Positions 5,506 through 8,028 of a stretch of 64,000 bases of DNA are shown here, piece after piece. Origin of the DNA: Escherichia phage KEP3; the sequence record PP047753; one strand, 5' to 3'. The position numbers were made by a program, and so were the translations under genes. Position 1 is the stretch's first letter. Every line of letters begins with the position of its first letter. Under the pieces are notes generated by a model that was not told the DNA's origin, did not search any database, and saw only the letters and a program-made list of their open reading frames with translations.

Positions 5506-5771
5506 TTCCTCGTTTTGAGAACTGCTAAGATTTCTTTAGAGTCTGGTAAGAACCATGTGTAGTGATTCTCTTTGATTTCTGGATGAGTGTCAACCTTTAT
5601 TTTGCACTCTTTACCAACGTGCTTAAGCTGTGCTGTGACACCTTGCATAAAGATATGACACATCACATTATCCATAATGGTTGGTAAGAAGTCAATTCGC
5701 ATATAAGTTTCTTTTGGTCGTGGTAACAGTAAGTAACCCTCTACGTAAAAAGTATCTTCATTCTCTGTCAT
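5502..5771 (-). CDS. hypothetical protein (89 aa)
   Basis: ORF, 4-nt overlap with neighbours. Confidence 0.5.
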   Translation of the reverse strand: MTENEDTFYVEGYLLLPRPKETYMRIDFLPTIMDNVMCHIFMQGVTAQLKHVGKECKIKVDTHPEIKENHYTWFLPDSKEILAVLKTRK

Positions 5772-6037
5772 TGCTGTTTATTTCCTAATAAAATCATATC
5801 AATAAGGTTATTAGCTTTGATTGTGCACTGGTAAAAACCATCACGATAAAACTCAAGGGCTGCTGCCACATCACTACCGGTATTACCTTTGATAGTGAAT
5901 CTTGACTCCTCTTGAGTGTACTTGTCACTCTCACTTACTTGGGAGTTTTTGAATGTACTGTTCACTTTGTTCGTTGAACACCCTGACATAATTATCAGTA
6001 ACACAAACATTATAAAACTCTGGCTTAGTTTTTTCAT
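5768..6037 (-). CDS. putative o-spanin (outer-membrane lipoprotein, Rz1-like)
   Basis: Signal peptide ending in lipobox-like IIMSGC; gene starts inside and out of frame with the upstream membrane-anchored ORF (overlapped spanin architecture). Confidence 0.5.
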   Translation of the reverse strand: MKKLSQSFIMFVLLIIMSGCSTNKVNSTFKNSQVSESDKYTQEESRFTIKGNTGSDVAAALEFYRDGFYQCTIKANNLIDMILLGNKQQ

Positions 6038-6278
6038 ATGTTAGTACCTCTTTTGTATGCTTATTCTTAGCAAGCACATCTTTCAAATCATTTTTGTAAT
6101 TGGTGCTCAGTGTGGCTAAACCTTCCTGATAAGCGTCTTTAGCAACACTTATTAGTTTCTCATTGCTTAACTCAGCTTCAGCAACTTGGTAGTCTCTGTA
6201 AGAGTATCCTCCCCAGACACCTGCCCCAACTAAGAAAACAATTATGAAAGTAGCTTGACAGAACTCTTTAAATGTCAT
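5931..6278 (-). CDS. putative i-spanin (Rz-like, N-terminal TM plus periplasmic helical domain)
   Basis: N-terminal TM (FIIVFLVGAGVWGGY) followed by charged helical region; 107-nt overlap with lipoprotein ORF. Confidence 0.5.
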   Translation of the reverse strand: MTFKEFCQATFIIVFLVGAGVWGGYSYRDYQVAEAELSNEKLISVAKDAYQEGLATLSTNYKNDLKDVLAKNKHTKEVLTYEKTKPEFYNVCVTDNYVRVFNEQSEQYIQKLPSK

Positions 6279-6302
6279 TTAACAATCTCCTGAAATGAAA
6301 AA

Positions 6303-6318
6303 GGCTCCCGAAGGAGCC
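6303..6318 (-). terminator. intrinsic terminator-like hairpin GGCTCC-cgaa-GGAGCC
   Basis: Stem-loop followed by T-run in minus orientation. Confidence 0.5.
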
Positions 6319-6330
6319 TGTATCTTAACC

Positions 6331-6810
6331 TTAACCGAGGACTTTAGCAAGGATATTTGCAGCCATCGAAGAAGCTTTTGCAGCAGCAACTACGCCAGCT
6401 TTGACAGTGCTATCCTTAATAGCAGATACCGTTGCAGCATCAGTAAAGAGATAAGTGATTGTTTTAGAACCACTCGTAAAGGAAAGCATAAGAGTAGTTT
6501 CCAGATTGAAAGAGCGATACGGAGCACCTTCTTTAACGATACCTTCAGCACCTAACTCTGAAGCCTTACCCATATCATAGATAGTCATCAGGTTTTCTTT
6601 GTGTGCAGTCGTTGAACCAGCACCTTTTACGTGCTTTTTAACATTCAACAATGCACGATATTCACGAATGCTGCCATCAGCTTTTACATTAACAGCACGG
6701 AAAATTTTACCTTCAAAGTTACCTTGAATCATTTTACGAACTACTTCAGATTTGTTTGCCGTATCGTCCAGTGCTACCGTAATGATATTGTTCATAAGTT
6801 TTTCTCTCAA
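6331..6810 (-). CDS. hypothetical protein (159 aa)
   Basis: ORF between phosphatase-like gene and spanins; no motif recognised. Confidence 0.5.
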   Translation of the reverse strand: MREKLMNNIITVALDDTANKSEVVRKMIQGNFEGKIFRAVNVKADGSIREYRALLNVKKHVKGAGSTTAHKENLMTIYDMGKASELGAEGIVKEGAPYRSFNLETTLMLSFTSGSKTITYLFTDAATVSAIKDSTVKAGVVAAAKASSMAANILAKVLG

Positions 6811-7502
6811 TGTTTAACTAACATGGTTTTAATGTGTGGAAGGATTCTGTTAACCTTCTGAACATTCTTCTCTGTATCTTCTATAAAGCATACTATATTA
6901 AAATAAGGAAGAATGCAAGATTGAATCATCCTCACTTTCAAACTTTCTGCACTTATAGAGTTAGTTCCAAAACCACGCATAAAAAGCATGTAATCATGCT
7001 CTATGTAATGCCTTAAAAACATCTCAGTAGGTACTCTCTGAGATTCACCCCTCGCTGTCAAGAGTCCAATGGTAGCATGATTAGAGATTGCATCAATAAT
7101 ATTGAAAACATATGTTGGTTTTGCACTTACAGAGTCAAGCAAATTAGTGTACTGTGAAAATGACCCATCAATCAGTTCCGTTGAGCAATCTTCGTGATTA
7201 AAATTTGTAAGAACACCATCAATATCTGCTAAGATGAGGTTACCTTTTTCTACAAGGTCTTTATTAACTATGACTAAACTGTCACGTCTTACACCTATAG
7301 ATTGCCCCGTCTCTTTATCCACAACGCTCACAATTGGTTGTGATGTGTGGAACTCTTCAAGTGAACATACAACTTCTCTTGCAGTGTCTTCAAAATCCCT
7401 GCACTGTTCTGAAGTCCATACACAGGAATCAAGACCTAACTCATGAGGGTGCAAGTCATAAGCATGGCACAATACTTCATCAGACTTTCTTAATTTTTTC
7501 AT
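6807..7502 (-). CDS. HAD-superfamily phosphatase-like protein
   Basis: Motif I-like LILADIDGVLTN (DxDG[TV]) and Thr-containing motif II GLLTAR. Confidence 0.45.
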   Translation of the reverse strand: MKKLRKSDEVLCHAYDLHPHELGLDSCVWTSEQCRDFEDTAREVVCSLEEFHTSQPIVSVVDKETGQSIGVRRDSLVIVNKDLVEKGNLILADIDGVLTNFNHEDCSTELIDGSFSQYTNLLDSVSAKPTYVFNIIDAISNHATIGLLTARGESQRVPTEMFLRHYIEHDYMLFMRGFGTNSISAESLKVRMIQSCILPYFNIVCFIEDTEKNVQKVNRILPHIKTMLVKH

Positions 7503-8028
7503 GGTTTACCTTAGAAATGTTTGTTGCAAATTCACATTGAGCGATGACTTTCATATTGTTGTAGACATCTTGAGAGTATTTCTTAGCTTTAGGGATTTTG
7601 TACGAATACCCAGCATTATATGATGCTAAAACTTTTTGTAAAGTCTTCTTTGACTTTGGCTGACCATGCACCTTTGTCCAAAACTCAAGCTCTTTATGTG
7701 TTTCTTTTGCGGCATAATCAAAGTCCTTTAAGAGTTTCTTTTTAGCCACATTAGGACTGATTTTGTTACGCTTTACAACAGTCTTCAAGTGATTCTGGAA
7801 AATACCATAGTCGTGGGTCTTTTTATTCTCTACCTTCAGACCTAACTCTGACTCTTGTAAGGCTATAGCTGCTAGAGTAATACCCCAGCCTTTCCCCATA
7901 TTATTCTCACCATACTGGTAAGCTTTTAACATGTTTACTTTTTGGCTAATTGTTAGCTCTGGGCAGTCAACTGCATAAGATAAGTGTGCTGTAAACATTA
8001 AGCACAAGCCTAGAATCAATTTCTTCAT
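7480..8028 (-). CDS. secreted lytic transglycosylase-like protein (candidate signal-peptide endolysin)
   Basis: N-terminal signal peptide (MKKLILGLCLMFTAHLSYA); SLT-like motifs AIALQESELG and DYGIFQ; promoter TTGTAT-N16-TATAAT upstream. Confidence 0.5.
   Translation of the reverse strand: MKKLILGLCLMFTAHLSYAVDCPELTISQKVNMLKAYQYGENNMGKGWGITLAAIALQESELGLKVENKKTHDYGIFQNHLKTVVKRNKISPNVAKKKLLKDFDYAAKETHKELEFWTKVHGQPKSKKTLQKVLASYNAGYSYKIPKAKKYSQDVYNNMKVIAQCEFATNISKVNHEKIKKV

Follow-up and report, generated by a model that had tools for sequence, protein, structure and literature searches.

A spanin pair and a separate unit encoding a predicted Vs.1-family transglycosylase downstream of rIIA-rIIB in Escherichia phage KEP3

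The 64,000-nucleotide stretch of Escherichia phage KEP3 (sequence record PP047753) that was analysed here, called the window below, carries five minus-strand open reading frames (ORFs) that a sequence-only reading had described as a lysis cluster: a secreted SLT-like protein, a HAD-type phosphatase, a 159-aa protein and a pair of spanins. All five ORFs are present where they had been placed, as are the motifs AIALQESELG, DYGIFQ and IIMSGC. The segment is very probably a conserved Felixounavirus stretch directly downstream of rIIA-rIIB that holds two independent things, a spanin pair and a three-gene unit. The SLT-like protein belongs to the family of T4 Vs.1, and there is good reason to regard it as an accessory peptidoglycan-cleaving enzyme and not as the endolysin. 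With similarly high confidence, we assign the role of endolysin to a soluble GH24 lysozyme encoded outside the window.

A megablast search with region 5000..9500 returned 270 phage records, headed by Escherichia phage vB_EcoM_DE17 (OP595146.1) at 99.6% full-length identity and followed by dozens of Felixounavirus genomes (Ounavirinae, Felix O1-like myoviruses) at 96-97%. Position 19473 of DE17 corresponds to window position 5000, and the window covers roughly 14.5-78.5 kb of DE17.

Transcription units and synteny behind rIIB

Two intrinsic terminators divide the five genes (Table 1). The first closes the rIIA-rIIB unit, and the second lies in the gap between the gene for the 159-aa protein and the i-spanin gene. 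The three genes for the SLT-like, HAD and 159-aa proteins look like a unit of their own, bracketed by the two terminators and apart from the spanins. In the gap that separates the first terminator from the SLT-like gene, a sigma-70-like promoter candidate can be read; the strong Shine-Dalgarno sequence of the gene, AGGAG, is at 8038..8034. The intergenic segments 8019..8138 and 6269..6345 (minus strand) show 100% identity across four Felixounavirus genomes with 3-4% divergence elsewhere, even next to flanks that differ, a pattern that suggests strong constraint on regulatory elements within both segments.

The same separation is seen when diverged relatives are considered. The order rIIA-rIIB-(small genes)-Vs.1-like-HAD_PNKP-...-WYL_2-...-Macro is kept in Erwinia phage Tian and in two diverged Ounavirinae-like contigs (L009 and L017), in which the SLT-like protein has fallen to 37-38% identity. 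In neither contig does a lipoprotein ORF lie closer than about 5-7 kb to the Vs.1-like gene. Since the terminators split the units, and since the trio is syntenic behind rIIB without spanins nearby, the five-gene "lysis cluster" is better described as a juxtaposition, and the claim of a single cluster is not sustained.

Outside the Ounavirinae the neighbourhood is different again. The neighbours of vs.1 in T-even phages are regB and vs (regB-vs.1-vs), and in a Vibrio schizoT4-like phage the Vs.1-like gene sits among nrd and thioredoxin genes. In the Ackermannviridae the gene downstream of the Vs.1-like gene shows no similarity to the HAD protein, and thus the pairing of Vs.1-like and HAD genes appears specific to the Ounavirinae. 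One distant phage contig has a PF00959 lysozyme gene as well as a Vs.1-like gene.

Some of the data speak against so clean a separation. The promoter candidate has a weak -35 element that did not pass the -35 test of our promoter scan, and the stretch from the terminator at 6302 to the i-spanin start yielded no promoter. It is possible that the spanin genes are transcribed by read-through of that terminator from the upstream unit, and co-expression of all five genes would then be real. The Vs.1-like gene also lies within a few genes of the spanins in both Felixounavirus and Kolesnikvirus, so that there may be a functional link between them.

The spanin pair, the lysozyme and the candidate holin

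The two distal genes encode a genuine overlapped two-component spanin. Signal-peptide and lipobox calls were made from sequence features and a Kyte-Doolittle scan, which gave one N-terminal hydrophobic segment each in the 182-aa SLT-like protein, the 115-aa i-spanin and the 89-aa o-spanin. In the i-spanin this is a single transmembrane segment (approximately residues 6-24), as expected of a type II inner-membrane protein, and the periplasmic part is a helical domain with one Cys. The o-spanin gene is in the +1 frame, shares 107 nt with the i-spanin gene and continues for 163 nt past the i-spanin stop, with a Shine-Dalgarno sequence (AAGAGG) 8 nt upstream of its start. Its predicted signal, MKKLSQSFIMFVLLIIMSG, is followed by Cys20 in the lipobox MSG-C, with Ser and not Asp at +2. 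A lipobox scan covering every start codon of the window, which recovered the T4-type o-spanin PseT.2 of RB69 as a positive control, found only two ORFs with lipoprotein signals, one of them the o-spanin. The sequence-only reading was therefore correct that the pair is real and overlapped, as the PHROG matches, transmembrane segment, lipobox and curated records agree, but its description of the lipoprotein ORF as embedded does not hold, the architecture being of the overlapped type.

The full-length o-spanin ORF is intact in 318 phage records, the most divergent of which (29-34% identity) come from Erwinia, Pectobacterium, Klebsiella and Morganella phages, and it is thus no chance ORF. In Erwinia phage Tian the homologue (34% identity, E 7e-15) is unannotated yet intact; it overlaps the annotated i-spanin gene and retains both the lipobox and a C-terminal LE(F/Y)(Y/W)RD...C motif. 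Both spanins are annotated with the same boundaries in the records of Bas63/JohannRWettstein, Mushroom and Pr103Blw, and the full 89-aa o-spanin ORF is used in those of Bas63 and Mushroom. Some o-spanin starts have been placed too far downstream, giving 73 aa in Pr103Blw (4769..4990, from M17 = MSGC...) and 65 aa in DE17 (4769..4966), and the signal peptide is therefore lost from these annotations. The other lipobox ORF of the window, at 36665..36922 on the plus strand, encodes 85 aa with the signal MNNKVKSCVKVMVALGVIFLSG ahead of its Cys and matches phrog_902, which has no function label; it could be a superinfection-exclusion lipoprotein of the Llp/Cor type.

The pair is already known, being annotated in many GenBank records and catalogued for Felix O1. 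Kongari et al. (2018) placed (Felix01, FO1a, UAB_phi87) and (phiEa104, PhiEa21-4) in their "Overlapped" two-component class (PMC6139136), and the gene pair described here matches the catalogued Felix O1 pair almost exactly, with no substantive difference. The paradigms lambda Rz/Rz1, P2 LysB/LysC and T4 PseT.3/PseT.2 have in common with it an inner-membrane i-spanin with an N-terminal transmembrane segment and an o-spanin that is a lipoprotein of the outer membrane. No sequence similarity was detectable between the window spanins and those of T4 (RB69 PseT.3/PseT.2) or lambda, as is usual among spanins. The T4 pair, like the one in the window, is encoded away from the holin and endolysin genes, and for PseT.2/PseT.3 the need for the pair in outer-membrane disruption and its complementation of lambda Rz/Rz1 amber mutants have been put to experimental test (PMC6139136). 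In the window, the i-spanin would be anchored in the inner membrane by its N-terminal segment, while the o-spanin would receive its lipid at Cys20 and be directed to the outer membrane, in keeping with Ser at +2. The two would join across the periplasm and disrupt or fuse the outer membrane only once the confining peptidoglycan has been destroyed.

The enzyme expected to destroy it is not encoded in the window. DE17 has a gene annotated as "lysozyme" at record positions 5072..5536, approximately 9 kb ahead of the point at which the window starts. The lysozyme, taken from the Pr103Blw sequence, is 154 aa long, lacks a hydrophobic segment at its N-terminus and shows the GH24 pattern E-x8-D-x5-T; as a tblastn query it found no match in the window. 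The lysin of C600M2 and CL1, which are close relatives, has been purified and is an active, globular N-acetylmuramidase (PMC9156722). For Felix O1-like phages in general, the endolysin, spanins and putative holin have been reported as "scattered around" the genome or, in the Meda paper, as "distributed across" it (PMC4319497, PMC6486253). The spanins, the scattered lysis genes and the separate lysozyme are thus all already documented for this group.

The sequence-only reading had remarked that no holin-like gene adjoins the lysis genes, and this is borne out, the absence being a known trait of the family. It had also pointed to small proteins with several transmembrane segments at a distance. 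The distance stands, but the first of these candidates, 43937..44502, is in fact two ORFs, of 123 aa (with a single transmembrane segment) and 65 aa, neither of which has several such segments. The 123-aa protein, whose transmembrane segment is N-terminal and whose C-terminus is helical and charged, is encoded at the end of the tail-fibre (late) block; many of 260 records name it holin or putative holin. Its PHROG, phrog_4038, has no function label, and no experiment on the protein was found. The remaining candidates and a further small ORF, 17653..17853, 17829..17996 and 20201..20407 (all minus strand), encode small membrane proteins of phrog_11929 and phrog_20082 ("membrane protein", moron/host-takeover) and of phrog_4532 (no function label), and none of the three carries a holin label.

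Lysis would then follow the canonical three steps. The holin, probably the 123-aa late protein, would permeabilise the inner membrane, the GH24 lysozyme would degrade the peptidoglycan, and the spanins would act last, the pre-assembled i-spanin/o-spanin complex being freed from the peptidoglycan mesh and then disrupting the outer membrane. Two parts of this scheme are open to objection: the 123-aa protein is a candidate holin by annotation only, and the case for the GH24 lysozyme as the endolysin in vivo is built on enzyme type and on assays of exogenous activity.

The Vs.1-like enzyme and its possible roles

The SLT-like protein matches phrog_600 over residues 1-170 (E 1.6e-57), the PHROG that also takes in RB69 Vs.1 (3.7e-67), and the two proteins share 33% identity over their full length by BLASTP (E 2e-19). 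By tblastn the protein was found in 2,127 phage records, T-even vs.1 loci among them, and the family spans T-even, Felix O1-like, Vi1-like and jumbo phages. We inspected an alignment of 170 family sequences, consisting of the query and 169 homologues, mostly representatives from a library clustered at 50%. Glu59, the catalytic residue, and Tyr137, Gly140 and Tyr151 are each conserved in all 170, while Ser60 is conserved in 165; position 78 is Gln or His in 162, and an N-terminal hydrophobic segment is present in 156. The corresponding motifs of the query are AAIALQESELG, DYGIFQ and SYNAG, with E59-S60, G75-x-x-Q78 and Y137-N138-x-G140. The protein has the goose-lysozyme-like alpha-helical fold of GH23, a family that includes g-type lysozymes, which are hydrolytic, as well as lytic transglycosylases. 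With a profile made from 15 homologues, the best solved structure was the type III secretion transglycosylase EtgA (E 7e-5), and more distant homologues (P0016, P0017 and P0019-P0021) carry precomputed hits to Pfam SLT (PF01464).

The N-terminus, MKKLILGLCLMFTAHLSYA followed by VD, has two lysines and a hydrophobic core of about 12-13 residues (LILGLCLMFTAHL) and then SYA immediately before VD. The protein is accordingly predicted to be exported by Sec, with the signal peptide cut after SYA21, and the earlier description of a secreted SLT-like protein can be kept as that of a GH23-type enzyme with a predicted Sec signal. A lipobox at this N-terminus was rejected, as LGL-C9 has Leu at -1 and the Cys is too near the N-terminus. 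A signal-arrest-release (SAR) domain was rejected as well, as the hydrophobic core is too short and an A-x-A-type site follows it. Cys22 and Cys165 occur together in 26 of the 170 sequences, Cys165 occurs alone in 55 and Cys22 alone in none, which hints at a periplasmic disulfide between the two in the branch to which the query belongs. RB69 Vs.1 lacks the cysteine pair found in this Ounavirinae branch.

The RB69 and T4 proteins have other features in common with the query. All are of about 180 aa, with a signal-like N-terminal segment and the E-S, G-x-x-Q and Y-N-x-G motifs, and all are products of early-region genes with a macro-domain gene a few genes downstream. The immediate neighbours differ, regB-vs.1-vs in T4 being replaced here by rIIB-Vs.1-like-HAD-WYL. 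With EtgA, Slt70, MltE, MltC and MltF the protein has in common the GH23 goose-lysozyme-like fold and a catalytic Glu followed by Ser, and it also resembles the small specialised lytic transglycosylases, such as EtgA, in having a length of 150-190 aa and a Sec signal. IpgF, IagB, VirB1 and P19 are further specialised small lytic transglycosylases of secretion systems. Unlike the EtgA-type and housekeeping GH23 enzymes, the SLT-like protein is phage-encoded and has no known trans-envelope machine, and the similarity to them is at the level of profiles only.

In several records, those of Mushroom, Tian, 3HA11, selz and fGh-Ecl04, the Vs.1-like gene goes under the name "T4 RegB-like", "putative endoribonuclease" or "site-specific RNA endonuclease". 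The RegB-like label was rejected, a comparison of the SLT-like protein with RegB giving E 6.5, and it was evidently transferred from regB, the T4 neighbour of vs.1. These annotations should be corrected to a Vs.1-like secreted GH23 transglycosylase. A "bacterial" match to the family, in assembly GCA_053226485.1 (labelled Campylobacter coli), lies on a 215-kb contig encoding a PhiKZ-type chimallin, and this contig is probably a jumbo-phage genome inside a bacterial assembly.

What such an enzyme might do is suggested in part by T4. Nolan et al. (2006) noted a marginal SLT similarity of T4 vs.1 and suggested "some role in cell lysis" (PMC1524935). In time-resolved omics data for T4, vs.1 RNA is early, as is that of the T4 spanin genes, and the Vs.1 protein is detected in the middle class; T4 Vs.1 is therefore made. 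For the phage studied here, the Vs.1-like enzyme would be expressed ahead of the late genes from a promoter of host type, exported by Sec and freed of its signal peptide after Ser-Tyr-Ala21. It could then make limited cuts in the glycan strands, with Glu59 as catalytic acid, so that the sacculus would be conditioned and lysis would not be triggered. Two observations count against this picture of an accessory peptidoglycan-cleaving enzyme. The Pfam SLT score of the protein, 19.1 bits (E 1e-3), falls below the gathering threshold of 21.3, and the literature on Vs.1 function consists of the 2006 comparative-genomics remark, no functional study having been found.

We considered the possibility that the Vs.1-like enzyme is a second endolysin, made early, restrained in the energised envelope and active after the holin has dissipated the membrane potential, when it would make a material contribution to lysis together with the GH24 lysozyme and the neighbouring spanins. 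The model for this is Tgl of the kayviruses, which is secreted, has lytic-transglycosylase motifs and a host-type early promoter, and serves as an additional endolysin beside LysK (PMC7150955). Tgl and the SLT-like protein are both signal-peptide enzymes of large virulent myoviruses, with genes that lie away from that of the main endolysin, but Tgl belongs to a phage of a Gram-positive host and to an IsaA/SceD-like family, and its activity has been shown by experiment, whereas that of the SLT-like protein is predicted. The E. coli cell wall is weakened by overexpression of periplasmic lytic transglycosylases (PMC10139938), the remark of Nolan and colleagues points the same way, and in Felixounavirus and Kolesnikvirus the gene is near the spanins. 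This linkage is, however, not kept in L009, in L017, in T4-like phages or in the Ackermannviridae, and no experimental support was found for any Vs.1 homologue. Furthermore, e (lysozyme) mutants of T4 fail to lyse although vs.1 is present, so that a Vs.1-type enzyme is insufficient for lysis in T4. On balance we consider a second endolysin unlikely.

The role of the enzyme might instead be unrelated to lysis and belong with the early rII and host-takeover functions, for example superinfection exclusion, blocking the entry of other phages, anhydromuropeptide signalling, or countering an envelope defence. The place of the gene right after rIIA-rIIB, which is conserved across Ounavirinae-like lineages, and the early expression of T4 vs.1 would fit such a role, as would a best sequence match among solved structures to a "specialised" transglycosylase, EtgA. 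A distant contig (L018), in which the gene lies beside counter-defence genes and has a lipoprotein gene behind it, would fit also. This evidence is contextual throughout, no phenotype is known, and the neighbourhoods vary among phage families; we hold the idea to be quite doubtful. A dedicated early periplasmic function, which could consist of sacculus remodelling for spanin or lysis-inhibition complexes, of superinfection exclusion or of neutralising an envelope defence, is likewise a decidedly tentative proposal, and its extension to the Ounavirinae, where the enzyme would join the HAD phosphatase and the WYL-fold protein in a conserved module linked to rIIB, is put forward with the same strong reserve. 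If a function of this sort were confirmed, the Vs.1-like enzyme would be not a redundant lysin but an early periplasmic player in a family with more than 2,000 phage records. Among the proteins of large virulent phages, T4 included, Vs.1 stands out in any case as very widespread and, as judged from its sequence, secreted and clearly enzymatic, with a function that is so far undefined.

In L018 itself, at 7001..7878, the Vs.1-like gene is followed by a gene for a 100-aa lipoprotein (signal MKTKLLLISLILLVSG ahead of its Cys), with a stop/start overlap of 4 nt. A homologue of Gad2 (anti-Gabija) is encoded upstream and a Mom-like gene lies nearby. The 100-aa lipoprotein is possibly a partner or an inhibitor of the Vs.1-like enzyme.

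The sequence-only reading had the SLT-like protein as a Sec-exported endolysin working without a holin, in a five-gene cassette with a non-canonical timing mechanism and with the 159-aa protein as a possible regulator. Sec-exported endolysins do occur in other phages. The N-terminus of the SLT-like protein resembles a signal peptide and its GH23 catalytic site is intact, its gene is three genes upstream of the spanins, and UniRef and one GenBank record label it "Lysin" or "putative lysin". On the other side, a soluble GH24 lysozyme and a holin candidate are present in the same genome type and have been published as the lysis genes. The units are split by terminators, the trio occurs without nearby spanins in diverged relatives, T4 Vs.1 is an early/middle protein that coexists with the e lysozyme, and the 159-aa protein is cytoplasmic with a putative WYL/Sm fold. 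The separate GH24 gene of the 99.6%-identical DE17, the purified lysin of a relative and the published lists of lysis genes leave this proposal very improbable, and a non-canonical timing was arrived at because the lysozyme gene falls beyond the window boundary. That the protein is catalytically dead and of a peptidoglycan-binding or inhibitor type is scarcely credible, since the sub-threshold Pfam score and weak Foldseek E-values that could be cited for it are set against catalytic positions that are invariant in the family, or very nearly so in the case of Ser60.

The HAD phosphatase, the 159-aa protein and other features

Table 1. Features of the rII-spanin region and of the candidate holin locus, in window coordinates
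Feature	Coordinates	Strand	Basis or remark
rIIA	11684..9318	-	upstream of the five-ORF block
rIIB	9238..8129	-	upstream of the SLT-like gene
Intrinsic terminator after rIIB, AAAAGGCTGCTTCGGCGGCCTTTT + T-run	8092..8115	-	terminator scan
Sigma-70-like promoter candidate	8060..8087	-	-35 TTGTAT 8087..8082, 16-nt spacer, perfect -10 TATAAT 8065..8060; read from sequence
Predicted Vs.1-family secreted GH23 (SLT-like) peptidoglycan glycosidase / lytic transglycosylase, 182 aa	7480..8028	-	
Phosphatase of the HAD superfamily, with a relationship to the 3'-phosphatase domain of T4 PseT (PNKP), 231 aa	6807..7502	-	phrog_3970, E 1e-133
159-aa ORF from TTG 6810, putative stand-alone WYL_2 / Sm-like SH3 beta-barrel with C-terminal helix	6331..6810	-	
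Intrinsic terminator between the 159-aa and i-spanin genes, AGGCTCCTTCGGGAGCCT + TTTTT	6302..6319	-	terminator scan
i-spanin (Rz-like), 115 aa	5931..6278	-	phrog_1152 "Rz-like spanin", E 9e-42
o-spanin (Rz1-like outer-membrane lipoprotein), 89 aa	5768..6037	-	phrog_4180, E 9e-51; phrog_456 "Rz-like spanin", E 5e-5
Candidate holin, 123 aa	43937..44308	-	99% identity to Pr103Blw "putative holin"
Small upstream ORF, 65 aa	44305..44502		100% match to the ORF upstream of the Pr103Blw putative holin (tblastn)

The second gene of the unit, which shares 23 nt with the SLT-like gene, was correctly recognised as encoding a HAD phosphatase-like protein, and it is not a full kinase. Motif I reads DIDGV, within LADIDGVLT, and thus supplies the DxDGT/V nucleophile. 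The match to PHROGs labelled "polynucleotide kinase" is confined to the phosphatase half: residues 84-219 align to positions 158-282 of phrog_505 (295 positions), and phrog_415 is matched too. No P-loop GxxxxGK[ST], as would be expected of a kinase domain, was found in the 231-aa protein. By its motifs and profile matches, then, the protein is a kinase-less HAD phosphatase of the PNKP type, and annotations of "polynucleotide kinase" should be reduced to HAD phosphatase. More direct comparisons gave less: the BLASTP match to the RB69 PseT C-terminus is weak (E 0.001), homologues carry weak or faint PF25109 HAD_PNKP hits, and searches with the protein itself found no match in Pfam and no sequence match in the Protein Data Bank (PDB). 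The N-terminal region of approximately 85 aa is a domain of no assigned function, unrelated to PseT. There is no signal peptide or transmembrane segment, and the protein is therefore expected to be cytoplasmic. A MupP-like link to anhydromuropeptide recycling was dropped, as nothing beyond superfamily membership speaks for it.

The T4 protein PseT has a HAD phosphatase domain with the same DxDG motif, and its gene adjoins spanin genes in T4 as the HAD gene does here. The differences are that the kinase half, present in T4, is missing here, and that the pseT-like gene and the spanin genes stand in the opposite order. In RB69 (135229..137531) the pseT.3/pseT.2 spanin genes are directly upstream of pseT, and the T4 order is pseT.3-pseT.2-pseT.1-pseT; in the window the spanins are just downstream of the pseT-like HAD gene. 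The adjacency of spanins to a pseT-like gene that is common to T4-type phages is positional only. In both settings the Vs.1-like gene is followed, a few genes further on, by a macro-domain gene, which is tk.4 in T4 and a 786-nt gene in Pr103Blw, Bas63 and Mushroom.

For the third gene of the unit, the ATG at 6795, which would give 154 aa as in GenBank relatives, is more likely to be the true start than the TTG. The protein has no signal peptide, membrane segment or DNA-binding domain and is expected to be cytoplasmic; its fold is putatively WYL/Sm-like. Nothing ties this protein or the HAD protein to lysis, and the proposed part of the 159-aa protein as a lysis regulator finds no support. Single-sequence searches of the PDB gave noise only for this protein and no match for the SLT-like protein. 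An NCBIfam scan of six proteins yielded nothing meaningful, an Rfam scan of the whole window matched no family, and a repeat search of 5000..9500 returned short repeats at chance level only.

Directly upstream of rIIA, at 11713..11889 on the minus strand, is a gene for a 58-aa protein of phrog_3931 (no function label), which combines a transmembrane segment at its N-terminus with a DnaJ-like zinc-finger motif, CxxCxGxG. The corresponding place just upstream of rIIA in Erwinia phage Tian is taken by a 54-aa gene labelled "chaperone protein DnaJ", its likeness to the 58-aa ORF being positional.

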